Shown here: in pieces, positions 18,255 to 64,000 of the stretch | Numbering within the stretch: position 1 is the first letter of the stretch | Layout: each line of letters begins with the position of its first letter | From: an uncultured Rhodoblastus sp. | Lineage (GTDB): Bacteria; Pseudomonadota; Alphaproteobacteria; Rhizobiales; Beijerinckiaceae | Reading direction: 5' to 3' | Assembly (NCBI RefSeq): GCF_903903185.1 | Contig: NZ_CAIUXT010000150.1 | Span: forward strand, 27,425 to 91,424 | DNA length: 64,000 bases | Translations under genes and position numbers: made by a program | The notes under the pieces: model-generated | Databases searched by the model: none | Told to the model about the DNA's origin: nothing | The model's input: only the letters and a program-made list of their open reading frames with translations

Positions 18255-18257
18255 TTA

Positions 18258-47098: not shown

Positions 47099-47818
47099 TC
47101 ATAGGCCCGATTTCAATGACGCTTCGTGAGGTGAAATCATCCGGTAATGCCGCGCCAGGGCGTTCAGGCCGCGGCGCAGGATGAACAGGGCCACGGCGCC
47201 AGCCATCTTGGCGTCGCGATAGGCGCCGACTTCGCGCCCGATCTCGACCGGCTCGCGGTCGTTGAGCACGATGGCCGCCAAGGGTTCGCGAAAATCATCC
47301 GGTATCGCCTCGCGCGCGGCGCGAAATTTCTGCAGCGCCTCGATCTGGCTCTCGCAGCGCCAAAGGCCGTTGGGCGAATAGGCGGCGGCGACTTCCTGCG
47401 ACGGATCGAGCGCGCGCAGCGGATCGAGCCCGGCGCGAAAAAAATCATGGCGGTATTTTTCGCCCGCCTGCGCCATCGCAAGATTTTTCGCGCGGTCGTC
47501 GCGGTCGAGTTGGTTGCGGTCGCGCAGCCGGGCCAATGGCCCGTCGTCCATGCGCATGCGCACGAAATCGACAGTGACGGCTTCGAACTTGTCGCCCTGC
47601 GCGACCTCGACGATTTCTGAAAAAGTTTCGACTTTCGCGCCCTCGCCAGCCCTGAGAAGGCGTTCGACGCTCGGCCCTTCCGGCTTGCGATAGCCGGTGT
47701 TGCGAAAAGTCTCCAGCATCCGCCGCGCCTGTCTATCAGTGGACGGCGGCTCCGTGCAGGCGAGTTTCGCCAAGGAAATTCTGGTCTTGCGCCGCTTGTG
47801 CATGGCGTATTTCCCCAT
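47099..47818 (-). CDS. Phage-region hypothetical protein (second gene of the leftward operon)
   Basis: 239-aa ORF with good high-GC third-position codon usage: ...DDGPLARLRDRNQLDRDDRAKNLAMAQAGEKYRHDFFRAGLDP...REVGAYRDAKMAGAVALFILRRGLNALARHY (C-terminal HTH-like segment). Family not recognised with certainty. Confidence 0.55.
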   Translation of the reverse strand: MGKYAMHKRRKTRISLAKLACTEPPSTDRQARRMLETFRNTGYRKPEGPSVERLLRAGEGAKVETFSEIVEVAQGDKFEAVTVDFVRMRMDDGPLARLRDRNQLDRDDRAKNLAMAQAGEKYRHDFFRAGLDPLRALDPSQEVAAAYSPNGLWRCESQIEALQKFRAAREAIPDDFREPLAAIVLNDREPVEIGREVGAYRDAKMAGAVALFILRRGLNALARHYRMISPHEASLKSGL

Positions 47819-47833
47819 TTTTCAAAAAAAGTG

Positions 47834-48409
47834 TCAGAGCGCGGAAAAATCGCTCAGCGTGAGCGTCAATTCGCCGCCGGGATTGCCGCCGTAGCAGGCG
47901 ACGAATTTATCCGGACTAAGGCCGCGTCGGATAATGCGACAGCGCGCCAGCAATTCGACCAGCGGCCGCTCCATCGCCCCGAACTGCCGCGTGCGCGCAT
48001 TGCGCGGCGCCATGATTTCGAGGGCATAGGTCGCGGCGATGCGCCCGGGCCTTTGCTGGCTGAGACGTTTCTGCGCCATATCCAGCCAGTCCTCATAGGC
48101 TTCCGAAGGCGCGAGGCCCTGCGCCGTCCGCACATAGAGCAGGGAGGGGGGGGGCGGCGGCGGCGCGTGCAGGGTAATTTTTTGCGCCGGCTGGCGCGGC
48201 TCGGCGCTGAGACCGAATTGCCCGGTTTTGGGGGTCGCCGCGCGCGGTCGGGCCATTTCGACCCGCAAGGGGCGAGCGCCAGCGCGTGGAACGATTACTT
48301 TGGTGGAGGAAAAAGGCGAGATTACGCAAAACGGAGCGAGGAGGGTCATGACGCCGCCATGGGGGAGAGGGGAAGAGGTCTTGCCGTTTTGGGACGGCAA
48401 AAAGAACAT
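47834..48409 (-). CDS. Phage-region hypothetical protein (first gene of the leftward operon), start uncertain, contains a C9 tract
   Basis: ORF-track entry. Codon bias is convincing only from about MARPRAATP... onwards. The candidate leftward promoter -10 overlaps the first ATG, so a downstream start is likely. Poly-Pro PPPPPP is encoded by CCG CCG CCG CCC CCC CCC. Confidence 0.45.
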   Translation of the reverse strand: MFFLPSQNGKTSSPLPHGGVMTLLAPFCVISPFSSTKVIVPRAGARPLRVEMARPRAATPKTGQFGLSAEPRQPAQKITLHAPPPPPPSLLYVRTAQGLAPSEAYEDWLDMAQKRLSQQRPGRIAATYALEIMAPRNARTRQFGAMERPLVELLARCRIIRRGLSPDKFVACYGGNPGGELTLTLSDFSAL

Positions 48410-48434
48410 AAGATGAACAATCTGATCGTGTCAA
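48406..48434 (-). promoter_or_regulatory. Candidate sigma70-type leftward promoter of the phage early operon
   Basis: Reverse strand reads TTGACA (48434..48429) - 17 nt - TTATGT (48411..48406). The -35 abuts operator 48435..48448. Confidence 0.4.
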
Positions 48435-48448
48435 TGGGAAAAATCCCA
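48435..48448. promoter_or_regulatory. Putative repressor operator O1 (TGGGAAAAATCCCA)
   Basis: Palindrome TGGGA-N4-TCCCA in the divergent intergenic region. An identical 14-mer occurs at 49287..49300. Confidence 0.6.
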
Positions 48449-48469
48449 CTGGACGGCGGGGTGAAAATA

Positions 48470-48483
48470 TGGGAAATATCCCA
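48470..48483. promoter_or_regulatory. Putative repressor operator O2 (TGGGAAATATCCCA)
   Basis: Same TGGGA-N4-TCCCA palindrome, ending 2 nt before the repressor ATG (48486). Confidence 0.6.
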
Positions 48484-48485
48484 TC

Positions 48486-49238
48486 ATGGATGAGGCGATC
48501 AAAAACCGCGTTCGGGCCGAAATGGATCGGCAGGGCCTCGACATGAAGGGCCTGTCGAAACTGGCTGGCCTTGGCGAGACCTATGTGCGCGACGCGCTCA
48601 AGCGCGGGCGCGGCGGTTCGCTGCCGGCCTTGCACAAGCTGGCTTCGGCGCTTGGGCGCTCGCTCGACTGGCTGATTACCGGCGCCGAGGAGGCGGGCGG
48701 CGAATTCGCCCCCGACAAGCCGCCGCGCCGGCGCCTCGACACCAGCGTCGATCTCAAGATGGTGGACAGCGCCTCGACCGACGCCGCCTCGACCATTTTC
48801 GAAGTGGATGTGCGCGCTGGCGCGGGCGGTGGCGGCGTGCCGGTCGAGGCCTTCGTCCATGACGAGAGCGGCAATGTCTATGCCGCCGAAGCGATAGCCG
48901 CCGAATGGAGCCTGCCTCCAGCGATCATGCAGGGGGTTTTGCACGCCAGCGCCCGTCATGTCCGGGTGTTCGAGGTGATCGGCGATTCGATGGAACCGCG
49001 CCTGTTCGAAGGCGACCGGGTGTTCATCGACCTGCGCTACACCATTCCGAGTCCCGAAGGCATTTTCGCGCTCTGGGACGGTTATGGCCTGGTGATCAAG
49101 AGGTTGCAGATGGTCATGGGTTCGGACCCGATGCGTATCCGCGTCATTTCCGCGAATCCGAGCTACACCCCCTATGAGGCGGCGGCGGACGATGTGAAAA
49201 TCGTCGGACGTTTCGCCGGACGTTTCACCGTCAACTGA
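48486..49238 (+). CDS. CI/LexA-type phage repressor (XRE HTH + S24 self-cleaving peptidase domain)
   Basis: N-terminal HTH ...GLDMKGLSKLAGLGETYVRDALKRGRGGSLPALHKLASALGRSLDWLI. C-terminal S24 domain with Ser in VIGDSMEP and Lys in GLVIKRL. Confidence 0.85.
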   Translation: MDEAIKNRVRAEMDRQGLDMKGLSKLAGLGETYVRDALKRGRGGSLPALHKLASALGRSLDWLITGAEEAGGEFAPDKPPRRRLDTSVDLKMVDSASTDAASTIFEVDVRAGAGGGGVPVEAFVHDESGNVYAAEAIAAEWSLPPAIMQGVLHASARHVRVFEVIGDSMEPRLFEGDRVFIDLRYTIPSPEGIFALWDGYGLVIKRLQMVMGSDPMRIRVISANPSYTPYEAAADDVKIVGRFAGRFTVN

Positions 49239-49286
49239 GTTCGCGTGATCCCATCGACGCAGCCATCATGCCCATTTAGGCCGAAA

Positions 49287-49300
49287 TGGGAAAAATCCCA
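49287..49300. promoter_or_regulatory. Putative repressor operator O3 (TGGGAAAAATCCCA) upstream of the structural operon
   Basis: Exact copy of O1, 29 nt upstream of a TTGACG -35. Extra half-sites AATCCCA / GCCCATT lie between it and the -35. Confidence 0.6.
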
Positions 49301-49328
49301 AAAATTTCAAAAATCCCATTAAAGCCCA

Positions 49329-49357
49329 TTGACGGGTCGACCGACTTTCGCTATAAC
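49329..49357 (+). promoter_or_regulatory. Candidate sigma70-type promoter of the packaging/structural operon
   Basis: TTGACG (49329..49334) - 17 nt - TATAAC (49352..49357), the best -35/-10 match noticed in the phage region. Confidence 0.55.
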
Positions 49358-49378
49358 TATCCATGTTGAAGATTTCCG

Positions 49379-49411
49379 CCCGGCGCTCTCGCACAGAGCC
49401 GCCGGGTTTTT
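49379..49411 (+). terminator. Promoter-proximal intrinsic terminator-like hairpin + T5
   Basis: CCCGGCGCTCT-cgcac-AGAGCCGCCGGG (11 bp stem, one bulge) followed by TTTTT. It starts about 22 nt after the -10 and lies about 95 nt before the TerS-like start. Confidence 0.6.
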
Positions 49412-49504
49412 GTTATCCGCTGGCGTTCCCGGACCCGGATGGCGCCGCGACGCCGCGGGTCATTGCGAAATCGCGCGAGGCGGCCAATCGGACATGGATG
49501 GAAC

Positions 49505-50071
49505 ATGGCGTCGGACCCGCGCGAGATGATAACAAGAAAACGCAGCAGCCGGCTCGCCGAGGTCGGCAATATTCCAGCCGATCAGCCGGCGAATGCAGTC
49601 CCGGCGGCTTCGCGAAAAGCCCAGAGCCGCGAGACCGCGCTCGACCGCGTCAATCGCGATCTGGCGATCCTGAACATGCGCCTGCATGGGCTGACGTTTC
49701 ATGAGATCGCCCGCAAATTGCCGGAGGCGGGGTTTGGCCGCGTTTCGGTGAGCCGCATTTACGCCATCGTCACGAAAAACCTGCGCTCCTGCCGCGAGCC
49801 GCCGGCGCGCGAGTTGCGCCAGCTCGAATTGCTGCGTCTCGATCAATTGCAGGCGGCGCATTACCCGGCGGCGATGGGCGGCGATTCCGCCGCAGCATCC
49901 CGGGTTCTTTCCATCATGGATCGGCGCGCCAAGCTGCTCGGTCTCGACGCCGGCGCCGAGGCGGCCAGTTCGCTCGACGAGGCGCGCAAGTCGCTGCTCA
50001 AGAAGCTCGATTCGCTGGCGCGCGGACAAGCGGCGCCGGACAGGGGTCCCGAAGCTGAAGCGAAGAATTAA
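49505..50071 (+). CDS. Putative small terminase subunit / HTH DNA-binding protein
   Basis: MASDPREMITRKRSSRLAEVGNIP...LHGLTFHEIARKLPEAGFGRVSVSRIYAIVTKNL (HTH) followed by a coiled-coil-like tail. Sits immediately upstream of TerL. Alternative start at 49439. Confidence 0.45.
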   Translation: MASDPREMITRKRSSRLAEVGNIPADQPANAVPAASRKAQSRETALDRVNRDLAILNMRLHGLTFHEIARKLPEAGFGRVSVSRIYAIVTKNLRSCREPPARELRQLELLRLDQLQAAHYPAAMGGDSAAASRVLSIMDRRAKLLGLDAGAEAASSLDEARKSLLKKLDSLARGQAAPDRGPEAEAKN

Positions 50072-50079
50072 TCGCCTCG

Positions 50080-51429
50080 ATGGGAAAGGACCCGACCCAT
50101 GCCTACGCCCTGGCGCGGCTCGGCGCCCGCGAGCGCGCCGCTTTTTTCGCCAAACTCGACGCCGATGAACTGGAATCGCTTAAAACCCTGTGGCCGTTCT
50201 GGGCGCGTCCGGAACAATTGATTCCGCCGGGCGACTGGGTGTTCTGGCTGCCTCTCGCCGGGCGCGGCTGGGGCAAGACCCGCACCGGTGCGGAAACGGT
50301 GCGCCAATGGGCGCGCAGTTTTCCCATGGTCAACCTGATCGGCGCGACCGCCGATGATGTGCGCGACGTAATGGTTGAAGGCGAATCCGGCGTGCTGGCA
50401 ATTTGTCCGCGCGACGAGCGCCCTCGCTACGTCGCGCACAAGCGGCGTCTGGAATGGCCGAATGGGGCGAAAAGCCTGCTGTTTTCCGCCGAGGAACCCG
50501 AAAGGTTGCGCGGCAAGCAGCATATGAAATTTTGGGCCGATGAACTCGCCGCCTGGCGCTATCCCGACGCCTGGGACCAGGCGGTGTTCGGCCTGCGTTT
50601 GGGCGCGAAACCTCAGGCCATCGTCACCACGACGCCGCGGCCGACCAAATTCTTCCGTGATCTTTTGGCCGACCCTTTGACCTTTTCGACGCAGCATTCG
50701 ACGTTCGAGAACATGGGCAATCTGGCGGAAAATTTTCTCGACCGTGTCGTGCGCAAATATGAAGGCACTCGGTTGGGGCGGCAGGAATTGCATGCCCATC
50801 TGCTGCTCGACGCGCCGGGCGCCCTGTGGACGCGCGAAGTCATCGAAGCGGCGCTGGCCGACGGCAAGGAGCGGTCAAAACTCGGGCGCATCGTCGTCGC
50901 CGTGGATCCGCCCGCCACTTCCGGCGACAACGCCGACGAATGCGGCATGATCGTCGCCGGCCTCGCGCCCGACCGGGTTGTCCATGTCCTGGCCGATCTG
51001 TCGCGTCAGGGCGAGACGCCGCTCGGCTGGGCGTCGCGCGCCGTGCAGGCTTTTCGGGAGTTTTCCGCCGATTGCATCGTCGCCGAAGTCAATAATGGCG
51101 GCGAGATGATCGAGACACTGATTCGCCAGATCGACGCCAATGTGCCCTATCGCGCGGTGCGCGCCGCCCGCGGCAAATTCGCCCGCGCCGAGCCGGTGGC
51201 GGCGCTTTACGAGCAGGGCAGGGTGCGCCATTGCGGCGTCTTCGCCAAGCTTGAAGACCAGATGTGCCTGATGACGCCGGATTTCGACCGCTCCCGCGCC
51301 GGCTATTCGCCGGACCGCGTCGATGCTCTGGTCTGGGCGGTGTCGTCGCTGCTGTTCGAACAGGGCGACGGCGCGGCGGTGTTTGAATTTTACCGCGCGC
51401 AGGCCGACGGGCTGAATCGGCAGGGCTGA
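50080..51429 (+). CDS. terL: Terminase large subunit (RcGTA g2-like family)
   Basis: ...WPFWARPEQLIPPGDWVFWLPLAGRGWGKTRTGAETVRQW (Walker A)...FWADELAAW (Walker B)...VAVDPPATSGDNADECGMIVAG...AEVNNGGEMI (RNase H-like nuclease). Confidence 0.9.
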   Translation: MGKDPTHAYALARLGARERAAFFAKLDADELESLKTLWPFWARPEQLIPPGDWVFWLPLAGRGWGKTRTGAETVRQWARSFPMVNLIGATADDVRDVMVEGESGVLAICPRDERPRYVAHKRRLEWPNGAKSLLFSAEEPERLRGKQHMKFWADELAAWRYPDAWDQAVFGLRLGAKPQAIVTTTPRPTKFFRDLLADPLTFSTQHSTFENMGNLAENFLDRVVRKYEGTRLGRQELHAHLLLDAPGALWTREVIEAALADGKERSKLGRIVVAVDPPATSGDNADECGMIVAGLAPDRVVHVLADLSRQGETPLGWASRAVQAFREFSADCIVAEVNNGGEMIETLIRQIDANVPYRAVRAARGKFARAEPVAALYEQGRVRHCGVFAKLEDQMCLMTPDFDRSRAGYSPDRVDALVWAVSSLLFEQGDGAAVFEFYRAQADGLNRQG

Positions 51430-51472
51430 CTTTTCTGCTGATGCAGAAAAACTCGAATCACTGGAGTCAAAC

Positions 51473-52828
51473 ATGACCGAACGCGGCGCGGGTCTTCCTC
51501 GCTGGTCCCTTTCGCCTGTCGAGGTCGCCGCCCGCCTCCGTGACAATGTCAACGGCGCCGCCGACTGGTTCGGCCCCTCGGACCCGCAGGCGCCGGGGGC
51601 GCCTGACGATGTCGCCGGCCGGCAATGGGATTTTCCCGCCGGCTATAATCTGAATATCCGCACGCGCTCCTATGAGGCGATTTCCTTCGCCGACCTGCGC
51701 GCGCTGGCCGACGCCTACGATCTGTTGCGGCTGGTCATCGAGACGCGAAAGGACCAGATCGAGCGGATGAACTGGAGCATTCGCGTCAGATCCGGCGCGA
51801 GCGCTGCGCCTGCGCAAATCGCCAAAGTTGAAAAGTTTTTCTTTTCCCCCGATGGCGCCCATGACTGGGCCGCCTGGATGCGCGTGGTGCTCGAAGACCT
51901 GTTCGTCATCGACGCGCCGGCGCTGTGGTGCGAGCGCGACCGCTCCGGCGCTTTGCTCGCCCTGCATCCCCTCGACGGCGCGACGATCAAGCCGGTGCTC
52001 GACGCCTGGGGACGCACGCCGCGTCCCTTCGCGCGCAACGGCGCGCTGGTCTATCCCGTCGCCTATCAGCAGATATTGAAGGGCATGCCGGCGGTCGATT
52101 ATTCCGCGCGCGACATCATCTATCGTCCGCGCAATGTTCGCTCGCATCGCGCCTATGGCTATTCGCCGGTCGAACAGGTGATCGCCACGGTCAATATCGG
52201 AATGAAGCGGCAATTGAGCCAGCTCAGCTATTACAGCGAAGGCAATATTCCCGAGAGTCTGATCGGCGTGCCGGACGCCTGGACGCCGGACCAGATCAAG
52301 AACTTTCAGGATTATTGGGATCTCTATTTCACTGGCGATCTGGCGCGGCGCAGACGCGCGAAATTCGTGCCCGGCGGCGTCGCCCGCACTTTTATTCAGA
52401 CGAAGGAGCCGGAGCTCAAGAACGCTTTCGACGAATGGATCGCCCGCGTCGTCTGCTTCGCCTTTTCGATCTCGCCGCAGCCTTTCGTCAACCAGATGAA
52501 TCGCGCGACGGGCGAAACGCAGAAGAACATGGCCGACGAGGAAGGATTGCTGCCGATCCTCGCCTGGATCAAGCGGCTCTGCGATCATGTCATCCATCTG
52601 CTCGGCGCGGAGAATCTGGAATTTGTATGGGGCCATGAGAGCATTATTGACCCGACCGTCCAGCGCGAAAATCTCGTCGCCTATGTCGGGGCCGGCATGA
52701 TGACGCGCCGCCGCGCGGCGGAAATTCTGGGCGAGACGCTGCCCGACGATCCGATGGCCGATGTGCTCACGGTGACGACGGGGCGGGGGGTGGTGCGGCT
52801 GGGAAGCAATTCGCTGACGCACAAATAG
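51473..52828 (+). CDS. Phage portal protein
   Basis: 451-aa ORF directly after TerL: ...ISFADLRALADAYDLLRLVIETRKDQIERMNWSIRVR...YSPVEQVIATVNIGMKRQ... Position and size are typical of a portal. Family not assigned. Confidence 0.7.
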   Translation: MTERGAGLPRWSLSPVEVAARLRDNVNGAADWFGPSDPQAPGAPDDVAGRQWDFPAGYNLNIRTRSYEAISFADLRALADAYDLLRLVIETRKDQIERMNWSIRVRSGASAAPAQIAKVEKFFFSPDGAHDWAAWMRVVLEDLFVIDAPALWCERDRSGALLALHPLDGATIKPVLDAWGRTPRPFARNGALVYPVAYQQILKGMPAVDYSARDIIYRPRNVRSHRAYGYSPVEQVIATVNIGMKRQLSQLSYYSEGNIPESLIGVPDAWTPDQIKNFQDYWDLYFTGDLARRRRAKFVPGGVARTFIQTKEPELKNAFDEWIARVVCFAFSISPQPFVNQMNRATGETQKNMADEEGLLPILAWIKRLCDHVIHLLGAENLEFVWGHESIIDPTVQRENLVAYVGAGMMTRRRAAEILGETLPDDPMADVLTVTTGRGVVRLGSNSLTHK

Positions 52829-52886
52829 TCCGGATTTCAAGGCGACGGTAGATTTCACCTTCGAAAAACGGGAGTGGTGGCGAGCC

Positions 52887-53945
52887 TTACTTTAAAATAT
52901 CTTTCAGCGCCGCAAAGAGTTTTTCCGACTGCTCCGCCGTCCCCACGGTGATGCGAAGATAATCGTCGATGCGGGGCAGATTGAAATGGCGCACCAGCAC
53001 GGCGCGGTTGCGCAGGGCTTGCGCCAGCTCGCCGCCTCTGGCGCCTGGATGGCGGGCGAAGATGAAATTGGCGCTCGACGGCAGCACCGAAAAACCCAAG
53101 TCCCGCAATTGCGCGCTCATGTTCTCGCGCTCCGCGACGATGGTCTTCAGGCTCGCCTGAAAATAGGCCTCGTCCTCGACCGACGCGATGGCGCCGGCCT
53201 GGGCGATGCGGCCGAGCGGATAGGAATTGAAACAGTTTTTGACGCGCGACAAAGCCTCGATCAGCGAGGCCGCGCCGAGCGCATAGCCGACCCGCAGGCC
53301 CGCCAGCGCGCGCGATTTGGAAAAAGTGCGCACCACCAGCAGATTGGGATGATCTGCGATCAGCGGAACGGCGGTTTCGCCGCCGAAATCGACATAGGCC
53401 TCGTCCACCACGACGGGAATGTCGGCGTTTTCCGCCACTAGCCGCGCGATGGCGTCGCGTCCCAGCGCGACGCCGGTCGGCGCATTGGGATTGGCGATGA
53501 TGATGGCGCCGGCCGAATTGCGGCGATAGTCGCCGGTGACGACGCGCAGGTCGTCGTCGAGCGCGACCGTCTCGGTGCGAATATCGTGAAGATTCGCCCA
53601 TACCGGATAAAAACTATAGGTCACGTCGGGAAACAGCAGCGGCTCGTCGTGTTTGAGCAGCGCCGGAAATATATGCGCCAGAACCTCGTCGGAACTATTT
53701 CCGACGAAAATATTCTCGACGCCGAGACCATGATAGGCGGCCAGCACTTTTCGCAAGGCGACCGATTCCGGATCTGGATAGAGCCGCAATGAATCGTCGA
53801 CGGCGTCGTGCATGGCCGCAAGGGCGCGCGGCGACGGCGGCAGCGGCGATTCATTGGTGTTGAGTTTGACCAGGCCCTCGATGCGCGGCTGTTCGCCGGG
53901 CGTATAGGGGCTCAGTCGCCGCGCAACCGCGCTCCAATACTGCAT
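52887..53945 (-). CDS. hisC: Histidinol-phosphate aminotransferase-type class-II PLP aminotransferase, antisense insert in the head module
   Basis: ...LSPYTPGEQP....VKLNTNESPL.PSP...LYPDP....LR..LA......ENIFVGNSSDEVL...IIANPNAPTG...VVVDEAYVDFGG...VVRTFSKSRALAGLRVGY (PLP Lys). Full length, no frameshift. Confidence 0.9.
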   Translation of the reverse strand: MQYWSAVARRLSPYTPGEQPRIEGLVKLNTNESPLPPSPRALAAMHDAVDDSLRLYPDPESVALRKVLAAYHGLGVENIFVGNSSDEVLAHIFPALLKHDEPLLFPDVTYSFYPVWANLHDIRTETVALDDDLRVVTGDYRRNSAGAIIIANPNAPTGVALGRDAIARLVAENADIPVVVDEAYVDFGGETAVPLIADHPNLLVVRTFSKSRALAGLRVGYALGAASLIEALSRVKNCFNSYPLGRIAQAGAIASVEDEAYFQASLKTIVAERENMSAQLRDLGFSVLPSSANFIFARHPGARGGELAQALRNRAVLVRHFNLPRIDDYLRITVGTAEQSEKLFAALKDILK

Positions 53946-54005
53946 TTTGGCTCCGTGCCATTGTTGCGCGTCGTCAGCAATAAATAGAAGCGCGCACTTT
54001 CTTTT

Positions 54006-55112: not shown

Positions 55113-55191
55113 GCCGCCATCGCTTAATTTTTAACCGCATATGCCCGCCCGGAAGGTGATCCGCCTTTCGGCGATATGCCCTGCTGAAAGC

Positions 55192-56712: not shown

Positions 56713-56729
56713 CCGGCTCTGTTGAAGGC

Positions 56730-56755
56730 GACCGTCCCGATTTTTCGGGGCGGTC
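56730..56755 (+). terminator. Stem-loop immediately after the capsid gene (attenuator/terminator candidate, no U-tail)
   Basis: GACCGTCCCGA-tttt-TCGGGGCGGTC, 11-bp stem with one mismatch, 18 nt after the capsid stop. Confidence 0.35.
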
Positions 56756-56852
56756 CGCCGCTGACGACGGGAATTGGAATTCTGCGAAGATCGCAAGCGA
56801 TCTCGAAACGATTTTGGTCGGCGCGACCTCTTCCTCACAACAGGATCGAGAT

Positions 56853-57068
56853 ATGAAATTTCAGGCTCCAGTAGGCTTGACCGCTGTTACTTGTGCGGGC
56901 GAGGCTTTCGCGCCGGATGACAATGGCGGCTTTGAAGCCGCCGAAGGTCTGGCCGCGGAACTTGCGGCGCATGGATGCTTTCCCGCGGGCGCCGCAGAAT
57001 CGACGGCGGCGGAAAAAGCCAGCGATTCCTGTCCGCGCGCCCGCGTTCGCTCGGAAAAGGCGCCGTGA
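56853..57068 (+). CDS. Phage hypothetical protein (71 aa)
   Basis: ATG 56853 preceded by AGGATCGAG: MKFQAPVGLTAVTCAGEAFAPDDNGGFEAAEGLAAELAAHGCFPAGAAE... Its stop overlaps the next gene's GTG (GTGA). Confidence 0.4.
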   Translation: MKFQAPVGLTAVTCAGEAFAPDDNGGFEAAEGLAAELAAHGCFPAGAAESTAAEKASDSCPRARVRSEKAP

Positions 57069-57070
57069 GC

Positions 57071-58270
57071 ATGGCGCGGGGCGATCTCGTTTCCCTGGCG
57101 CAACTCAAGGCGCATCTCGGCGTCCAGTCGAGCGCCGACGACATTCTGCTCGCCAGTATGATCGGTCAGATCAGCCGTGCGATTTGCACCTATATCAACC
57201 GGCCTTTTGTCTGGGCGCCGCACGGACCCGCGACCCAATGGAAGCCGCAGTCGAAACCGATCGTCTTCGTCGAATATGGCTTCGCCAGCGTCGATCGCTG
57301 CACCAACCAGCCAAACGTTTTTTTCGATGCGAAATCGACGGAAAGCGGCACACCTTTCTGGTCCCTCTGGCAGGGCCCTGATGGCGGCGTCTGGATGCCG
57401 AAGCGCGATGACCTGCTCGCCGACATGGCGTTGCAGGCAGTGCATGATTATTGGAGCGCGCAAGCCAATATCGAGACCTCCAGTTCTGGCGTTCCGATGA
57501 TTTTCGCGCCGTTTTGTTGCGCATGGAACTGGGATGCGCGACCGTTTCCGACTTTTCCTCTCCAAGCCGGCGTCTGGGGCGACGGCGGGAATTGGCCAAC
57601 CGGCAACTGGATTTGCGGCAAGGGGCCGGCGATCGATCCGCCAGCGGTCGAAACGCCGCCGGGCCCAGGGACCTTTGCCGTTTTTCCGGTGCTGATGGGA
57701 CAAGGCTGGGGCGTCAAATATGCGCCGCGCTTTTCGACCGGCGTCCTTGCCCATGTTTCGGGGCGCGAAGCGCGAACGGCCCGGATCGTCAGTCCGCTTT
57801 ATGATATCGAATTGAACTTCGAACTCTTGCGCGACAATGCAAGTCAATTGGAATTACAGCAGGTTATTGGCTTCATTGGCGCTCATGCGGGCCGGACGAA
57901 GCCTTTCCTGTTCGCGCCTCCAGCCGGTTTAAGCATCTGTCGCGGCGAATCGCTGGGGATGGGAGACGGCTTGGCCCGGTCGTTCCTGTTGCGGCGGATG
58001 ATTGGCGGCTACGCGGAGAGCGTTCAGGCGGTCACTGGCGCTGCGACGGTGTATCTGAACGGATTAGCTCTGTCCTCAGACGCCTATGAAGTCTCGATCC
58101 TTCCGGCGAGTGTGACTTTCACGGTTGCGCCGCCCTCCGGCGCCTTGCTGACCGTGGATTTCAATGCCGCGCATCTCGTCCGCTTTGCCGAAGACAGCGT
58201 CGATCTGGAGCATTTCATGAGCGACTTTTGGGCCTCGAAATCTCTCATGCTTGAAACGGTGCGCGCTTGA
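57071..58270 (+). CDS. Chimeric tail/connector protein: gp6-like head-tail connector N-terminus + GTA TIM-barrel C-terminal fragment + DUF2460-like distal-tail domain
   Basis: N-terminus MARGDLVSLAQLKAHLGVQSSADDILLASMIGQISRAICTYINRPF. Middle KPIVFVEYGFASVDRCTNQPNVFFDAKSTES...WNWDARPFPTFPLQAGVWGDGGNWPTGNW. C-terminus FPVLMGQGWGVKYAPRFSTGVLAHVSGREARTA...VRFAEDSVDLEHFMSDFWASKSLMLETVRA. Confidence 0.6.
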   Translation: MARGDLVSLAQLKAHLGVQSSADDILLASMIGQISRAICTYINRPFVWAPHGPATQWKPQSKPIVFVEYGFASVDRCTNQPNVFFDAKSTESGTPFWSLWQGPDGGVWMPKRDDLLADMALQAVHDYWSAQANIETSSSGVPMIFAPFCCAWNWDARPFPTFPLQAGVWGDGGNWPTGNWICGKGPAIDPPAVETPPGPGTFAVFPVLMGQGWGVKYAPRFSTGVLAHVSGREARTARIVSPLYDIELNFELLRDNASQLELQQVIGFIGAHAGRTKPFLFAPPAGLSICRGESLGMGDGLARSFLLRRMIGGYAESVQAVTGAATVYLNGLALSSDAYEVSILPASVTFTVAPPSGALLTVDFNAAHLVRFAEDSVDLEHFMSDFWASKSLMLETVRA

Positions 58271-58869
58271 GTCCCCCGCTCTTTCCGACCCTGCCGGGAC
58301 AAGGCTGGAGCGTCGTTAAAACGCCGACGTTTTCGACGCGCGTGGCCTCGCATTCCTCGGGCCGTGAAGCACGAACCGGACTTTACGCCCATGCGCTCTA
58401 TGCGTTCGAATTGACCTTCGATGGTCTCGATTCAGCCGCCGCCAACGCCGGCCTGCAAGCAAACTCGCTCCAGTCCCTGATGGGCTTCTGGCTTTCCTGC
58501 GGCGGCCAACTCGGAACCTTCCTTTACGCCGACCCGACCGACAACACCGCTGTCAATCAGGTCATCGCTGTTGGCGACGGATCGACCACGACGTTCACTT
58601 TCGGTCGCGCCATCGGCGGCTATTTCGAGCCTGTTTCCTATGTAACGTCGGTATCGGGCGTCACGATCAATGGCGTCTCCACGACTGCCTATTCATGGAG
58701 CGCGCCGAACACGATCGCCTTCTCCACCGCGCCGATCGGCGGGGCGCGCATCGCCGCCAGTTTTGCTTTTGCCTTCCAGTGCCGCTTTCTCGACGACCAG
58801 GCGGAATTCGAGAATTTCATGTCCGGCATCTGGCGGGTCAAAAGCCTCAAATTCCGCCAGGTGCGTTGA
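58267..58869 (+). CDS. DUF2460-family distal tail protein (RcGTA g12-like)
   Basis: (TTG) SPPLFPTLPGQGWSVVKTPTFSTRVASHSSGREARTG...GFWLSCGGQLGTFLYADPTDN...IAVGDGSTTTFTF...CRFLDDQAEFENFMSGIWRVKSLKFRQVR. Paralogous to the C-terminus of the preceding ORF. Confidence 0.75.
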   Translation: MSPPLFPTLPGQGWSVVKTPTFSTRVASHSSGREARTGLYAHALYAFELTFDGLDSAAANAGLQANSLQSLMGFWLSCGGQLGTFLYADPTDNTAVNQVIAVGDGSTTTFTFGRAIGGYFEPVSYVTSVSGVTINGVSTTAYSWSAPNTIAFSTAPIGGARIAASFAFAFQCRFLDDQAEFENFMSGIWRVKSLKFRQVR

Positions 58870-59781
58870 ATGAAGTCCGCTCCTCCAGCTCTTGTCGCTT
58901 TTCTCAACACGCTGCGCTCGACTTCCGACGCGCCTTTGCTGACGGCGGATTGTTATACCATCTTGCTCGCCAATGGCGCCGTGCTGACGTACACCGATCT
59001 CGACATTCCGTTTGCGCTCAACGGTTTCGCTTACCTGGCGAATTCGGTCTTGATCTCGGGTTTGAAATATCGCGCGTCCTGCGGTGTCAATGTCGATAGC
59101 CAGCAGGTGACGATTTGCGCGCGCACGACCGACACGATTGGCGGAGTTCCATTTCTACAGGCCTTGCGGCAGGGGCTTTTCGACGGCGCTGAAATTCGGC
59201 GCGAAAAGGCTTTCTTCTCCGCCTGGGGGACGCCGCCGATCGGTTCAATCGTAATGTTCAAGGGGCGCGTCGCACAGATCGATTCAATCGGCCGCGCCAG
59301 CGCGCAGGTCACTGTCGCGTCCGATCTCGTGCTGCTCGACATCGACATGCCGCGCAACTGCTATCAGGCCAATTGCCAGCATGTCCTTTATGACGCCAAT
59401 TGCACCGTCGTCGCAGGAACCTATTCGACGACCGGAAGCGTCGGCGCAGGCTCGACGCAGACGCAGATATACTGGCCGGGGGCGATTCCCCCCTTTCAGC
59501 AGGGGACTATTACCTTCACCTCAGGCGGCAATACCGGTGCGGTCGCGACGATCAAATCGGCTGGAAGCGGCTGGCTGCAGCTTGCCTATCCCTTGCTCTA
59601 TTCGCCCGCCGCCGGCGATGCCTTTTCGGCTTCCTATGGCTGCGACCACACGATGGCGACATGCCAGAGTCGCTTCAACAACCTAAGCCAGTTTCGCGGT
59701 TTTCCGTTTGTGCCGCCGCCGCAGATCATGACGGGGCCGCTTTCTTCGGTGGTCTCCAACAGCGCCAAGGGCGGAAAATAG
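58870..59781 (+). CDS. DUF2163 + BR0599-type tail hub protein (RcGTA g13-like)
   Basis: MKSAPPALVAFLNTLRSTSDAPLLTADCYTILLANGAVLTYTDLDIPF...GFAYL...SASYGCDHTMATCQSRFNNLSQFRGFPFVP (C-terminal Cys motif typical of BR0599 domain). Confidence 0.75.
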   Translation: MKSAPPALVAFLNTLRSTSDAPLLTADCYTILLANGAVLTYTDLDIPFALNGFAYLANSVLISGLKYRASCGVNVDSQQVTICARTTDTIGGVPFLQALRQGLFDGAEIRREKAFFSAWGTPPIGSIVMFKGRVAQIDSIGRASAQVTVASDLVLLDIDMPRNCYQANCQHVLYDANCTVVAGTYSTTGSVGAGSTQTQIYWPGAIPPFQQGTITFTSGGNTGAVATIKSAGSGWLQLAYPLLYSPAAGDAFSASYGCDHTMATCQSRFNNLSQFRGFPFVPPPQIMTGPLSSVVSNSAKGGK

Positions 59782-59790
59782 GAGTTGGCC

Positions 59791-60264
59791 ATGACCGAAG
59801 TCGAACGGCGCCAACTGGAGGACAGAAACCGCGTGGTCTCGGAAGCGCGCAAATGGATTCTGACCCCCTATCATAATGGCGCCGATATCCTCGGCGCCGG
59901 CGTGGATTGCGGCATGCTGATCGTGCGGGTATTCGTCGATCTGGGCCTGGTCCCGGCTTTCGATCCGCGGCCCTATGATCCCGACTGGATGCTTCATCGC
60001 GACGATGAAAAATATCTTTCGTTTTTTTCACAACGCTGCGCGCGGGTCATCAAGCCGCAACCCGGCGATCTGGCGCTGTTTCGCTATGGCCGCTGTTATT
60101 CGCATGGGGGCATTGTAACTGGCGCCGATCCCGTTGCTATTGTTCACGCCTATCATGACGCCGGTTGCGTCGTCGAGGAAGCGCTCGCGCAAAATCCTGC
60201 GCTCACCGACCCCAGGCGCAAGCTGGCCTTTTTTTCCATCTGGGCTGAAAAGACGAGGGCATAA
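59791..60264 (+). CDS. NlpC/P60-family cell-wall peptidase (RcGTA g14-like)
   Basis: AGGAG-N6-ATG: MTEVERRQLEDRNRVVSEARKWILTPYHNGADILGAGVDCGMLIVRVF (catalytic Cys)...GDLALFRYGRCYSHGGIV (His). The ORF track's TTG start at 59785 is less likely. Confidence 0.8.
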   Translation: MTEVERRQLEDRNRVVSEARKWILTPYHNGADILGAGVDCGMLIVRVFVDLGLVPAFDPRPYDPDWMLHRDDEKYLSFFSQRCARVIKPQPGDLALFRYGRCYSHGGIVTGADPVAIVHAYHDAGCVVEEALAQNPALTDPRRKLAFFSIWAEKTRA

Positions 60265-62396
60265 TGGGCTTCTTGCGCGCAGGAAACAGCAATACCCAGA
60301 TCACCAAATATTCCGGACTCCAGGTCCAGACGACATCGAGCAGCGTTCCGGTGCCGATCATCTATGGCGCCAATATCCTCGCGCCGAATTGTTTCTGGTA
60401 CCAGAACTTTAAGGCGCATCCGCAACATGCCGGCGGAAAGGGTGGGGGCAAGGGCGGTGGGAGAGGCGGGGGCGGTTCGACCACGAGCTATACCTATAGC
60501 TGCTCCATCATGATGGGGATCGGCGAAGGGCCAATCGCCGGCATCGGCAAAATCTGGCAAACTTCGACCATGGTCGTCGATCTCGCAGCCTTGGGCCTTA
60601 GCCTTTTCGCTGGATATTCGCCGCAGAGCGTCTGGCCCTACCTGTCCGGAGCATTTCCGGCGCAAGCGCTGACCTATCCGGGCGTAGCCTATGTCAGCAA
60701 TTCGAACTACGACCTCGGCGCCTCGGCCAGCGTCGGCGACAATAATTTCGAGGTGTTCGGTATTCTTTACGGCGCCGGCGTCAACGGCCAGGATGCGGAT
60801 CCGGCGCTGGTGATCTCGGACTTCCTGACCAACCCGCAATATGGCGTCGGCTTTCCCGCCGCTTCCATCGACGCAACATCGCTTTTCGCCAATTCCGGCG
60901 ATTCCTCTTACCAGACCTATTGCTGGGCCAATTACCTGGCGATCAGTCCGGTCCTGAACATGCAGGAAACTGCCTCCTCGATCTTGACGCGCTGGCTGCA
61001 GCTTACCAACGCCACCGCGGTATGGTCCGGCGGGCTGTTGAAAATCATACCCTATGGCGACGGCGAAGTGACCGGCGGCTCGGCTTCCTTTCAGAAAACG
61101 TGGACGCCAAATCTAACGACGGCATATGACCTTACCGATGAGGATTATTTGCATACGGATGGCGAAGATCCGGTCAGGATCATGCGTTCCGATCCCTATT
61201 TGGCCCATAACCAGCAAGCGATCGAAATTCAGGCGCGCTCGGATTCCTATAATACCGGACCGATCGTAGCTTTTGACCAAGCGGCGATCAACAGCTACGG
61301 CTTGCGCATTGGTTCCACGATCACGGCGCATGAAATTTGTGATTTACAGGTGGCGCAGACGTCTGTGCAATTAATTCTGCAACGCGGCCTCTACATTCGC
61401 AACACCTTCATCTTCAAGCTGTCGATGGAATTCTGTCTGCTCGATCCGATGGATCTGGTTACGCTGACCGATCCGGCGCTTGGTTTGAACAAGACAATCG
61501 TGCGGATCGTTGAGATCGAGGAAGATTCCGATGGCGCGATCACCGTGACAGCGGAAGAATTTCCTCAGGGCGTGGCGACGGCGGCGCTTTATCCGACCCA
61601 GATAAAATCGAACGGCGTTCCGGACAGTTCCATCGCGCCGCAGCCGGTCAATACGCCGATCATCCTCGAACCGCCGCCTTTGCTGACAGGCAATGTCCCG
61701 CAATTATGGCTTGGCGCCAGCGGCCGGAACGGCGATCCAAATTGGGGCGGCTGCGTGGTCTGGGCCTCGCTTGACGGCAATTCCTATGCGGAAATCGCGC
61801 GTATCGGGTCGTCGGCGCGCCAGGGCATTGCTTCCTCAACTCTTCCGGCCAACTCGGGCGCCAATCCCGATTCTTTCGACACGCTGGCGGTGGACCTGAC
61901 CGCGAGTGGAGGCGCACTGTCTTCGACCTCGCCGGCGAGCGCGGCGGCGGGAGTCACGCTTTGCTATGTGGATGGCGAATATTCAAGCTACACGACAGCG
62001 ACGCTCACAGCGGCAAACAAATATTCTCTGACGGGTCTTTATCGCGGTCTCGCCGGATCCGGGGCTTCGGCCCATGCGGCCGGCGCTACATTCTGTTTGC
62101 TCGATTCAGCCATTCTGAAATATGACGTCGCGGCCTCGCAAATTGGTCGAACGATCTATCTCAAATTTCAGAGTTTCAACATTTTCGGCAGCGGCGTTCA
62201 GGACCTTTCGACTTGCGCCGCTTACCCTTACACGATCCAGGGGACGGGGGCGAACGGTCCGGTAGCGGCGGCTTTGGCCGTTGGCGCGTCAATGGACTAC
62301 GGCCTCGTCAATGCGTCTGTCGCCGAAGCCGACGATTTCGGCGGGTTGTCATCTCCCGTGACGGTCATCATCGACCTCGGAACGACGGCAAGCTGA
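60264..62396 (+). CDS. Host-specificity / central tail protein (Phage-tail_3 type, RcGTA g15 C-terminal-like, lacking a TIM-barrel domain)
   Basis: MGFLRAGNSNTQITKYSGLQVQTTSSSVPVPIIYGANILAPNCFWYQNF...GGKGGGKGGGRGGGGSTTSYTYSCSIMMGIGEGPIAGIGKIW...FEVFGILYG: the lambda J / GTA g15-like pattern. Confidence 0.75.
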   Translation: MGFLRAGNSNTQITKYSGLQVQTTSSSVPVPIIYGANILAPNCFWYQNFKAHPQHAGGKGGGKGGGRGGGGSTTSYTYSCSIMMGIGEGPIAGIGKIWQTSTMVVDLAALGLSLFAGYSPQSVWPYLSGAFPAQALTYPGVAYVSNSNYDLGASASVGDNNFEVFGILYGAGVNGQDADPALVISDFLTNPQYGVGFPAASIDATSLFANSGDSSYQTYCWANYLAISPVLNMQETASSILTRWLQLTNATAVWSGGLLKIIPYGDGEVTGGSASFQKTWTPNLTTAYDLTDEDYLHTDGEDPVRIMRSDPYLAHNQQAIEIQARSDSYNTGPIVAFDQAAINSYGLRIGSTITAHEICDLQVAQTSVQLILQRGLYIRNTFIFKLSMEFCLLDPMDLVTLTDPALGLNKTIVRIVEIEEDSDGAITVTAEEFPQGVATAALYPTQIKSNGVPDSSIAPQPVNTPIILEPPPLLTGNVPQLWLGASGRNGDPNWGGCVVWASLDGNSYAEIARIGSSARQGIASSTLPANSGANPDSFDTLAVDLTASGGALSSTSPASAAAGVTLCYVDGEYSSYTTATLTAANKYSLTGLYRGLAGSGASAHAAGATFCLLDSAILKYDVAASQIGRTIYLKFQSFNIFGSGVQDLSTCAAYPYTIQGTGANGPVAAALAVGASMDYGLVNASVAEADDFGGLSSPVTVIIDLGTTAS

Positions 62397-62607
62397 ATGA
62401 TCATTCTACTTTGACGCAGCTCCGTCCAGACGCGGGTGCCAGAATCGATTGCGTTTGGTGGAACCGAAATCGACTCTAGATTCCGCAGTTCTTGCAATAT
62501 TTTTGGCAAAAATATTCGGCATCCATTTTTTTGCGCATTGCTCCAGCCGCATCGGCGCCGGGTTCGTCGTCTTTCTGTGGCCGAGGCGCGAGACAAAAAG
62601 GAAATCC

Positions 62608-64000
62608 ATGTCCGTTCAAGTCAAACGTCGCCGTGACACGGCGGCCAACGTCGCAGTCTATGCCGGCGCGCAGGGCGAACTAATCGTCGACACGACCAAC
62701 AACCGGGTCACCGTTCATGATGGCGTCACGCCGGGCGGCTTCGCGGCCGCGAAATTGTCCGAGGTGCTAACAGCCGCGCGTACGGCGGTGATGGATGCGA
62801 ATTACGCCGTGCTCGTCTCCGATCGCACGATCGCTTTCACCGCGATCACCGTTGCTCGCGCGGTGGCTTTGCCGGCGGCGTCGTCATATCCGACTGGAGT
62901 TTCCTTGAGGGTTGTCGACGAGAGCGGAAACGCCTCCTCGTCCAAGATGATCGCTTTCACGCCTAATGGTTCGGACTTGATCGACGGCCTGTCGAGCGCG
63001 GCGATTTCGTCGCCCTATGGCTACCTCGTACTGCAAAGTAACGGCGCGGTCAGCCCCAACGGAAAATGGACCATCGTCGATCAGGCGACTTCCGGGCTTC
63101 CCTTCGTCGGCATCGGAACAGCGGCGGACCCGGGCAACCCACTTTCAGTTTTTGGCGCCTCGGCCTTGTTCAATGGGACGAATTTCAACTTCACCCTTAA
63201 CAAGTCGGCGGTTGGCAATACCGCGTCGATCCTTTTCCAGGATGGATTTTCAGGCCGCGCCCAAGTCGGACTTACAGGCGACGATAATTTCCATTTCAAG
63301 GTATCGCCGAACGGATCGAGTTGGCTCGATGCGCTCGACTTCAACGCGAATACCGGGCAAGCCTCGATTAATTACGGAATTGCGTCCGGCGAAGCCCTGA
63401 GTTGGCGCAACCGTCTCCGCAATGCCTCATTCGCCGTCAACCAGCGCAATGTTTCGGGCGCGGTGACGCTGTCGGCGGGCGCGTACGGACACGATGGCGT
63501 CAAGGGCGGCGCGAGCGGCGCGACCTACACTTTCGCAACTTCGGGCGCTGACACAACGTTGATAATTACCTCGGGGTCGTTGATCCTGCCGATCGAATCC
63601 TCGCTGATCGAAGGCGGGGCCTATACGGTCCAAAACGCAGGAACGGCCCAGGCGCGCGTTTGGCAGGGAACAGGATACAGCGGTTCGGGCGCCTATGCTT
63701 CGGCGGCGGTGAGCCCGACTGCGGCGCCGCTGACCTTCGCCAGCCTCACGGCGGCAACGCAGACCAACGTGGAGTTTTCAACAGGCACGGTGCTGCGCCC
63801 GCAGTTCGAGTTCGGATATGTGGCGACTGCTTTCGAGCGGCGGCCTCCCGGCGTCGAACTTTTTCTATGCCATAGATATTATTTCAGGATTGCAGCCACG
63901 GGTTCCTATTCTCCCTTCGGCCTGGGGTCCGGCGTCAGCCCGACGGACATCCGCGTCGAACTTGACTCGCCCGCACCGATGCGAGGCGCGCCGACGCTGA
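62608..64000 (+). CDS. Tail-fibre-like protein, 5' part (open at the right edge of the window)
   Basis: ATG 62608 preceded by AAAGGAAA: MSVQVKRRRDTAANVAVYAGAQGELIVDTTNNRVTVHDGVTPGGFAAAKL. This resembles the conserved N-terminal module of phage fibres (hyaluronidase / Mtd N-terminal type). The frame stays open to 64000, so it is absent from the ORF track. Confidence 0.55.
   Translation, partial: MSVQVKRRRDTAANVAVYAGAQGELIVDTTNNRVTVHDGVTPGGFAAAKLSEVLTAARTAVMDANYAVLVSDRTIAFTAITVARAVALPAASSYPTGVSLRVVDESGNASSSKMIAFTPNGSDLIDGLSSAAISSPYGYLVLQSNGAVSPNGKWTIVDQATSGLPFVGIGTAADPGNPLSVFGASALFNGTNFNFTLNKSAVGNTASILFQDGFSGRAQVGLTGDDNFHFKVSPNGSSWLDALDFNANTGQASINYGIASGEALSWRNRLRNASFAVNQRNVSGAVTLSAGAYGHDGVKGGASGATYTFATSGADTTLIITSGSLILPIESSLIEGGAYTVQNAGTAQARVWQGTGYSGSGAYASAAVSPTAAPLTFASLTAATQTNVEFSTGTVLRPQFEFGYVATAFERRPPGVELFLCHRYYFRIAATGSYSPFGLGSGVSPTDIRVELDSPAPMRGAPTL

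Follow-up and report, generated by a model that had tools for sequence, protein, structure and literature searches.

What kind of element combines a repressor with packaging, head and distal-tail genes, without genes for a tail tube or a tape measure? The question is raised by a 64,000-nucleotide (nt) stretch of DNA from an uncultured Rhodoblastus sp. (the window; coordinates are positions in it, and L-numbers such as L001 or L167 denote retrieved loci or contigs of relatives), in which phage-type content starts 16 bp past the stop codon of the host gene meaB, with a convergent gene at 47099. An earlier note on this DNA had correctly described this border and proposed three explanations: (i) the left part of a short-tailed temperate phage with its integrase to the right, (ii) a decayed prophage, or (iii) a domesticated element resembling a gene transfer agent (GTA), with head genes unlike those of the Rhodobacter capsulatus GTA (RcGTA). 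Our analysis revealed in this region the left two-thirds of a prophage-like element with head, tail and lysis genes of siphovirus type; the element as a whole is probably a recently crippled copy of a resident element of the GTA/PBSX kind. Most of the gene content first described is real. Two points needed correction: a hisC gene on the minus strand between portal and protease had been overlooked, and the first gene assigned to DUF2460 is a deletion scar.

The tail-module deletion and its junction

The genes on either side of the gap, with the expect values (E) of their profile matches, are the following.

55141-56712, plus strand: major capsid protein (phrog_13692, E=2e-138)
57071-58270 (open frame from 56975), plus strand: deletion-fusion open reading frame (ORF), 399 aa, with a Phage_connect_1 fragment, partial GTA_TIM and DUF2460
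58267-58869, plus strand: distal tail protein (Dit), DUF2460, RcGTA g12-like (PF09343, E=2.1e-38)
58870-59781, plus strand: baseplate hub, RcGTA g13-like (PF09931, E=3.6e-33; PF09356, E=1.5e-23; TIGR02218, 108 bits vs cutoff 80.5)
59785-60264, plus strand: NlpC/P60-like peptidase in RcGTA g14 position (PF00877, E=3e-3, weak; position kept in all relatives)
60264-62396, plus strand: tip/host-specificity protein, counterpart of the C-terminal portion of RcGTA megatron g15 (Phage-tail_3, E=5e-30; Rcc01698_C, E=2e-15)
62608-64000, plus strand, running past the window edge to window-equivalent 64182: tail fibre, Mtd_N (L001 7260-8834: PF18454, E=8.9e-12; phrog_4492)

The g12-g15 order recognised earlier in the distal-tail block is upheld by these matches, whereas the ORF in front of it (56975/57071-58270), also taken for a DUF2460 gene, is a fusion. 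Pfam searches revealed in it, in order, a gp6-like Phage_connect_1 fragment, positions 194-299 only of GTA_TIM (one third of that domain) and DUF2460. About 48 N-terminal codons of a connector gene are joined in frame to codons 477-826 of an 826-aa GTA_TIM+DUF2460 gene, so that the C-terminal 350 residues derive from this 826-aa (megatron-N/Dit-like) protein; the connector frame is that of L007 3828-4640. In blastn comparisons, homology to the connector stops at 57218 and homology to the 826-aa gene begins at 57211/57212, an overlap of 7-8 nt. Across the junction the letters are TCTGGGCGCCGC in the window, TCTGGCCGCGCG in the left parents and GCTGGGCGCCGC in the right parents, and their comparison places the join within a CTGG..CGC microhomology (57211-57218).

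Relatives were sampled as matches to the fusion ORF in IMG/VR and as capsid matches in one genome per species, and the family members found in this way come mainly from Rhodoblastus. In every relative covering the region from capsid to tip, the capsid gene is followed by a connector (~270 aa), a neck/tail completion protein (phrog_5), a 152-aa phrog_8150 protein, a 254-aa phrog_8234 protein that is probably the tail tube, two small ORFs in chaperone position, a tape measure of 385-425 aa (phrog_12798 and other tape-measure PHROGs) and the 826-aa protein with complete GTA_TIM (E=2e-92) and DUF2460, and then by the Dit, hub, P60 and tip genes. The connector and 826-aa halves lie ~6 kb apart in over 20 loci from IMG/VR and over 35 from genomes; from capsid stop to breakpoint the window has 500 nt, compared with 5,818-9,051 nt in 59 of 59 relatives, and the stretch lost, as measured in six relatives, is 5.87-6.03 kb. 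The lost genes are the rest of the connector, the neck, the probable tube, the chaperone-position ORFs, the tape measure and half of the megatron-N/Dit gene. From this comparison we are nearly certain that the tail-tube and tape-measure genes are missing from the window as the result of a ~6 kb deletion between short microhomologies.

With this deletion shown, the short-tail reading is refuted, and with it the first part of option (i). A natively short-tailed (podovirus-like) phage or particle, with an RcGTA-type baseplate set directly on the connector, would accord with the lack of tube and tape-measure genes in the window and with a weak match of a 188-aa protein, encoded further right, to PF23148 (podophage fibre-tail adaptor; E=1.6e-5, below cutoff). 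It is nevertheless extremely improbable, since all 59 relatives, some of them 79-90% identical in flanking genes, hold a full neck-to-tape-measure module at the breakpoint, and the fused ORF retains just one third of GTA_TIM. An assembly artefact that conceals an intact tail module in the real genome is also very unlikely. Over 55349-64000 (8,652 nt, junction included) the window agrees letter for letter with L001, a metagenome contig from ENA; both are metagenome assemblies and possibly draw on the same reads, and the exact junction 23-mer was not found in the JGI metagenome or IMG/VR collections. However, the junction microhomology of just 4-7 nt is far too short for assembler collapse, the join is in frame and clean, and the two contigs, recorded separately, agree across it.

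The window copy does not contain a complete particle gene set; it is predicted to be unable to build tails and would yield, at best, DNA-filled tail-less heads. All its other structural genes are full length compared with those of relatives. The ratio of nonsynonymous to synonymous divergence (dN/dS) of the Dit, hub, P60 and tip genes is 0.10-0.18 in pairwise comparison with the closest relatives, and a three-taxon decomposition gave ~0.11-0.17 for the window's own branch. The tail genes thus appear to have been under selection along most of this branch, from which we infer that the deletion is a recent event and the copy recently crippled. Option (ii), a decayed prophage, is correct for this copy to the extent of one ~6 kb internal deletion; the other genes remain full length, with purifying selection still visible.

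Position, ends and inheritance of the element

The left part of the element, up to the capsid gene, is arranged as follows.

46144-47082, plus strand: meaB, host gene at the left border (PF03308, E=9e-73)
47099-47818, minus strand: DUF6456 (GafA-family C-terminal domain) gene (Pfam E=7.4e-6, 26.5 bits vs cutoff 26.3)
47834-48409, minus strand: partner gene, family-less; likely real start 48349 (Met21)
48486-49238, plus strand: repressor of CI/LexA type with helix-turn-helix (HTH_3) and Peptidase_S24 domains (PF00717, E=2.3e-13; HTH_3, E=1.2e-3; phrog_4, E=2e-31)
49439-50071, plus strand: candidate small terminase subunit (TerS), 210 aa, by position only; sole family match phrog_645
50080-51429, plus strand: large terminase subunit (TerL) (Terminase_6N, E=1.4e-21; Terminase_6C, E=8e-20)
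51473-52828, plus strand: portal (PF04860, E=2.9e-12; phrog_2662, E=5.7e-70)
52887-53945, minus strand: hisC, histidinol-phosphate transaminase (PF00155, E=1.7e-55; TIGR01141, 304 bits vs cutoff 276.55)
54006-55112, plus strand: prohead protease/scaffold candidate (Peptidase_S78_2, E=1.9e-4, below the Pfam cutoff; PHROG head maturation protease, E=3.9e-6; phrog_21715, E=1.3e-15)

The first description of two leftward genes and a rightward HTH+S24 repressor holds, the repressor with Pfam and PHROG matches, and profile matches agree with its TerL, portal and capsid calls; TerS is recognised by position only, and the protease match is weak. The repressor does stand directly against the packaging genes, and this layout is kept across the family: the module DUF6456 (minus), partner (minus), repressor (plus), TerS, TerL is conserved in relatives, with no replication or early module between repressor and late genes.

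Searches with MeaB homologues as probes revealed that the element adjoins meaB in eight genomes, two Rhodoblastus acidophilus assemblies being among the occupied ones; the junction was seen in L167, L169, L178, L253, L255/L256 and L258, and in L257 two genes lie between meaB and the element. In relatives the convergent gene overlaps meaB by 4 nt, so that no intergenic attachment site (att) exists there. Three outgroups have an empty site. In L259 and L260, whose MeaB is 73-76% identical, UDG, Zn-peptidase and other host genes follow meaB, and in L263 the same upstream synteny is followed by Kup and HrpB; with short branches, L263 splits off before the occupied clade in trees of MeaB and of PPDK. 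Across the family the left ends are host genes (meaB; LuxR/PCuAC; ETF-QO; glcE/F-like; EgtB-like), after which come the S24 repressor and the terminase genes, and neither integrase nor replication genes were found at the visible left ends of relatives.

MeaB and the element proteins divide into the same three subclades. Synonymous divergence (dS) was compared pair by pair between meaB and three element genes, namely those for the repressor, TerL and the DUF6456 protein.

L167-L255: dS 0.36-0.39 for element genes, 0.40 for meaB
L167-L253: dS 0.47-0.61 for element genes, 0.61 for meaB
L253-L255: dS 0.43-0.60 for element genes, 0.52 for meaB

Deeper pairs gave dS of ~0.6-1.3 for element genes and 0.6-0.9 for meaB, and the Spearman correlation of pairwise dS with that of meaB was 0.6-0.7 for the repressor gene and TerL and 0.47 for the DUF6456 gene. 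All twelve genes tested had dN/dS between 0.1 and 0.46, and the values did not exceed 0.30 in hisC and the head, tail and packaging genes and were 0.19-0.36 in the DUF6456 gene. The position after meaB, the match in dS and the low dN/dS are those of vertical inheritance at a fixed locus under purifying selection; conserved position downstream of meaB in related genomes and purifying selection are what the earlier note had named as favouring domestication.

The right end was followed on L001, which carries sequence 8.4 kb beyond the window's right edge: the fibre remainder, proteins of 543, 900, 188 and 641 aa, two small ORFs and the start of an Amidase_2 gene at L001 16818 (window coordinate ~72.2 kb), where the lysis cassette begins, ~8 kb past the window. 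The available sequence of this genome's element ends inside this amidase gene, 8.4 kb beyond the window. The extension proposed earlier thus yielded lysis genes just right of the window and no integrase in the 8.4 kb gained. As first noted, the window ORFs gave no match to families of integrases or of replication, tail-tube, tape-measure or lysis proteins, and integrase and replication families were likewise absent from the window and these 8.4 kb together. The window also contained no tRNA gene and no att-like direct repeat, at the left border or elsewhere, and no match to an Rfam family.

In the closest relative, the fibres are followed by Amidase_2, Phage_lysozyme2, small membrane proteins and a conserved 90-aa transmembrane/coiled-coil protein, and after the 90-aa gene come host imuA-imuB-dnaE2 and dnaJ. 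Five IMG/VR proviruses stop at the same 90-aa gene, and another relative passes directly from the element into host genes. No integrase was found at the right end of any relative examined, and the second part of option (i) is not supported. The 33.3 kb provirus put together from L086+L011+L249, which is covered in full, has neither integrase nor replication genes. The lysis cassette, represented by Amidase_2 on L001 and by Phage_lysozyme2 and small membrane proteins in relatives, is a feature of temperate prophages, as is the CI-like S24 repressor with predicted cognate operators described below.

Several further observations concern this end. The 641-aa protein is a predicted tailspike-type beta-helix, its fold, predicted with an 8-sequence alignment, matching tailspikes and polysaccharide lyases with modest confidence. 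A homologue of it lies at L261 7960-18220 in a stand-alone cluster with Amidase_2, an Mtd_N fibre, unknown proteins and a Beta_helix protein, flanked by glycosyltransferase and housekeeping genes, with head and tail genes not nearby; this cluster resembles the accessory fibre/lysis loci of GTAs. The 90-aa protein (L248 12080-12352; ends of L245, L247 and L249-L251) is 80-83% identical among relatives, compared with 60-72% for the neighbouring lysis genes. In the metagenome relative L244, P2-like contractile-tail genes (Phage_GPD, tail sheath) in opposite orientation occupy 14150-20189, beginning ~1 kb past ORF 12852-13163, the last one 3' of the lysis cassette; they belong to a second phage-derived element.

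The hisC gene is embedded in the head operon. Its best PDB match is the HisC structure 3hdo (E=2.7e-61); it lies antisense at the same spot in all relatives of the Rhodoblastus clade (72-82% identity), has a dN/dS of 0.12-0.20, and is not present at that spot in more distant relatives. That hisC might mark a host/prophage boundary between two separate remnants was considered and rejected because the order portal-hisC-protease is conserved in all clade relatives. A conserved antisense hisC within a head operon fits long residence.

The spacers around it differ among relatives. In the window, 43 nt separate TerL from portal and 58 nt separate portal from hisC, and the same two gaps are cargo hot spots in relatives, with runs of up to 4.4 kb of small unknown ORFs, a Transposase_mut gene and a T6SS_Tle1-like lipase gene (L253 17040-18242; L255/L256 16541-17699; L258 13245-16589; L083 3506-7977). 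Many relatives have repeated internal or 3' portal fragments between portal and hisC. At L197 11000-21491, 3' of the capsid gene, there are 6-7 tandem units of ~1.5 kb, each of which opens with the end of the capsid gene (aa ~491-523) in diverged form and continues with a diverged ORF; repeated gene fragments are also listed for L200, L091, L163, L166, L167, L170-L172 and L175. These repeated capsid and portal fragments look like serial cassette insertion that duplicates part of the target gene; none are present in the window.

An element that is intact under selection at such depth, beside the same gene and without integration or replication genes, is best read as resident and vertically inherited. 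We consider it reasonably probable, on these sequence comparisons, that the family is a chromosomally fixed, vertically inherited and domesticated element and not a mobile temperate phage. It would have stood beside meaB since the common ancestor of the Rhodoblastus clade, co-diverging with meaB, and would have acquired hisC inside the head operon.

Several findings weigh against this. Some R. acidophilus strains have a LuxR or PCuAC/HTH flank and not meaB (1-2 kb visible), and in Methylocapsa and Methylocella relatives lie at other sites, where host genes precede the S24 repressor and the terminase; such other sites and flanks imply that the element once moved or that the locus was rearranged locally. 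Short branches underlie the placement of the element-free L263 as basal. The fibre region is hypervariable, cargo that includes the transposase and the Tle1-like lipase accumulates between TerL, portal and hisC, and the tail modules are also found with other head modules (L017), all of which is typical of phage mosaicism. Finally, an integrase beyond this genome's amidase gene is excluded only by analogy with relatives. The LuxR/PCuAC-flanked copies were not accepted as proof of transposition, because only 1-2 kb of left flank is visible and L257 shows gene insertion between meaB and the element.

The same findings bear on whether the window instead holds an equally deletion-crippled copy of an ordinary temperate siphophage, still mobile and site-specific beside meaB, with integrase, excisionase and replication functions further right or in unrecognised genes. 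We regard this as unlikely. Besides the variable fibres, cargo insertions, module exchange and different loci in other genera, it would explain the joint presence of a CI-like S24 repressor and a lysis cassette, and there is room for it in several large proteins without family match and in the right end of the contig, which lies outside the sequence read. Yet integrase and replication genes are found at neither end of any relative examined nor in the 33.3 kb provirus, the 4-nt overlap of convergent genes with meaB in relatives excludes an intergenic att, synonymous divergence matches that of meaB pair by pair, a housekeeping-type hisC sits within the head operon, and cultured phages are at most 58% identical in capsid and 50% in TerL. 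The vertically inherited, resident element is therefore the reading followed below.

The control region and its putative regulators

Three copies of a 14-bp palindrome, TGGGA-N4-TCCCA, are present in the window, all beside the repressor gene (48435, 48470 and 49287), compared with an expectation of 0.13, and none of 100 shuffles reached three. The sites and the late control region are the following.

48435-48448: predicted operator TGGGAAAAATCCCA, in the divergent control region
48470-48483: predicted operator TGGGAAATATCCCA, in the divergent control region
49287-49300: third predicted operator, between repressor and TerS
49287-49415, plus strand: late-operon control region, with operator, promoter-like site, and hairpin and T-run

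The palindrome recurs 15 nt 5' of the repressor start codon in twelve relatives and again between repressor and TerS in eight; the repressor itself is 75-91% identical in relatives. A promoter scan found a leftward promoter-like site at 48434..48405, adjoining the first operator. An operator-like palindrome, TGGGATAGCTCCCA, whose central N4 is not A/T, is also present at 34010-34023, where two convergent genes of the host portion meet, and is probably a chance match.

Between the repressor stop (49238) and the TerS start (49439) lie 200 nt, a distance likewise found in all relatives. This interval contains a rightward promoter-like sequence, TTGACG-N17-TATAAC, at 49329-49357, and then a GC-rich hairpin at 49378-49407 that is followed by the T-run TTTTTGTT (to 49415), ~25 nt 5' of the TerS start. 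The folding energy was -26.8 kcal/mol for the full 66-nt leader (z=-2.6) and -21 kcal/mol for the hairpin by itself. Hairpin and T-run are kept, with the letters of the stem changed, in nine relatives (L253, L255, L258, L167, L178, L168, L083, L166 and L163). The leader hairpin with its T-run reads as a predicted terminator upstream of TerS.

The two leftward genes would be the positive side of this circuit. The DUF6456 protein has 239 aa, and all four orthologues compared match the domain (concatenated, 61 bits). DUF6456 is the annotation borne by GafA homologues (PMC9638019, PMC9765227), which in Hyphomicrobiales have a mass of 22-32 kDa and a small gene just upstream (PMC9638019). In Caulobacter, RogA represses gafYZ, and GafZ takes RNA polymerase past a terminator in the GTA cluster (PMC9632790, PMC11150451). 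The DUF6456 protein is accordingly named here as a candidate GafZ-like activator/antiterminator. Its partner gene, which encodes 171-191 aa, is conserved in eight orthologues with a mean column identity of 71% and has no match in Pfam, NCBIfam, PHROG or PDB, occupies, by positional analogy, the place of the small gene that precedes gafA in Hyphomicrobiales. PDB searches with single sequences and with profiles gave nothing meaningful for either protein. To the points on the other side, listed above, these genes add three more: the DUF6456 match of the window protein by itself is at threshold (26.5 vs 26.3 bits), no DnaA-like or GafY-like domain is detectable in the partner, and a single-sequence AlphaFold model, with a pLDDT confidence score of 38, is unusable.

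A mechanism can be proposed from this arrangement. The S24 repressor would bind the three TGGGA-N4-TCCCA operators, two of them shared with the leftward operon and one placed before the late promoter. Its RecA-stimulated self-cleavage would free both the promoter of the leftward pair and the late promoter, after which the DUF6456 (GafA/GafZ-like) protein and its partner would activate the late promoter. The GafZ-like protein would then let RNA polymerase read through the leader terminator before TerS, and this read-through would turn on the packaging, head, tail and lysis genes, in the way of RogA/GafYZ in the Caulobacter GTA or Xre/Xpf in PBSX.

Option (iii), a domesticated GTA-like element with non-RcGTA heads, is supported at the level of the family by the absence of integrase and replication genes from the sequence read and from the visible ends of relatives, the position after meaB, the co-divergence with meaB, the candidate GafA-family gene, the predicted operators and the predicted leader terminator. 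For the family this reading is plausible; for this crippled copy, which cannot make tailed particles, it is not.

Kinship with known systems and meaning for the family

Comparison with RcGTA revealed a shared baseplate and a different head. Like RcGTA, the element has the distal-tail order and families DUF2460 (g12), TIGR02218 hub (g13) and NlpC/P60 (g14), the g15 megatron domains GTA_TIM, Phage-tail_3 and Rcc01698_C, TerL and portal proteins of the same Pfam families, a candidate GafA-family (DUF6456) regulator and apparent chromosomal inheritance, and its relatives show no integrase or replication genes at their visible ends. Unlike RcGTA, its capsid (phrog_13692) and protease matched no RcGTA-type family in Pfam and PHROG searches, the capsid having no Pfam match at all; fibres, lysis genes and an S24 repressor share its locus; intact relatives measure 33-35 kb compared with ~15 kb; and the window copy has no tail module. 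The megatron of the element is also split, with an N part upstream of g12 that carries an extra Dit-like domain and a C part after g14. The GTA_megatron model NF048004 scored 139 and 433 bits, spread over two genes, against an equivalog cutoff of 800. In the family, its positions 213-755 lie in the 826-aa protein (L011 8573-11053), fused to the extra DUF2460/Dit-like domain, and its positions 830-1170 in the 710-aa tip protein (window 60264-62396), after NlpC/P60. With head genes that fail the test, and known here from its genes, the element is not filed as an RcGTA-type GTA; nor is it an ordinary lambdoid prophage, since the sequence read and the relatives examined gave no integrase and no early region.

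Among cultured phages, the nearest heads belong to the Brevundimonas siphophages vB_BpoS-Polewnik and Strzyga (ON529863, ON529867). The capsid is 58% identical to an unannotated ORF in capsid position of these phages, and 26-29% identical to annotated major capsid proteins of Arthrobacter phages. TerL, 47% identical to that of the Brevundimonas phages, is at most 50% identical to that of any cultured phage. The TerS candidate, which lies immediately 5' of TerL in all relatives (60-82% identity), has no match among cultured phages. Polewnik and Strzyga also share the order TerL, portal, capsid, connector, tail, tape measure, endopeptidase and tip protein. They differ in having virulent-type genomes of 62 kb that encode a helicase, a ribonucleotide reductase and a thymidylate synthase, and in having no S24 repressor beside the terminase, no hisC and no DUF6456 gene.

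The predicted control resembles that of the Caulobacter crescentus GTA. Here, too, a repressor would govern the promoter of an operon of two activator genes, the second of which encodes a candidate homologue of the GafA C-terminus, and a predicted intrinsic terminator close to where the structural cluster begins agrees with control by anti-termination. The predicted control differs in that the repressor is of CI/LexA type (HTH+S24), with a predicted operator at the late promoter too, and the regulators adjoin the cluster, whereas those of Caulobacter lie elsewhere on the chromosome. The predicted terminator precedes the first structural gene here, that of Caulobacter follows it, and the partner has no detectable GafY/DnaA-like domain.

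PBSX, a defective prophage of Bacillus subtilis, is a contiguous locus of repressor, positive late regulator, TerS/TerL, head, tail and lysis genes; it is chromosomally fixed, has no integration or replication functions and responds to an SOS-type trigger. Its tail is of the contractile myovirus type, and its positive factor Xpf is sigma-like. By analogy of overall layout, PBSX is the nearest counterpart of the element, the match being one of architecture. Lineage and tail type are unrelated, and among the element proteins the only match to a PBSX-related family is that of Peptidase_S78_2 (XkdF-type protease), below cutoff.

The presence of heads and baseplate without tube or tape measure in this genome reflects ordinary gene loss and not a new tail design. 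The family joins GTA-type regulators and an RcGTA-type baseplate to a different head and to a phage repressor of CI type, has lysis and fibre genes of its own, and bears sequence signatures of long vertical residence. It is a credible candidate for a new GTA/PBSX-like variant. We suggest, tentatively and with a confidence that stops a little short of even for all its parts taken jointly, that the intact relatives may represent a previously undescribed lineage of GTA-like elements in Rhodoblastus, perhaps also in other Beijerinckiaceae: a particle factory of 33-35 kb in a single locus, with a non-RcGTA head, an RcGTA-type baseplate and a split megatron, inherited vertically beside meaB with an embedded hisC, in which an SOS-cleavable CI-type repressor would govern a GafZ-like antiterminator pair and a leader terminator, and of which the window would be a natural tail-less knock-out allele.

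Cultured R. acidophilus strains, for example DSM 137 or DSM 142, carry intact copies, which makes the family experimentally tractable, and the deletion allele is a ready natural control for the intact relatives. If the proposed control is true, SOS induction would be linked to GafZ-type anti-termination, and if the particles of intact relatives package host DNA, the family would represent an independent route to GTA-like domestication.

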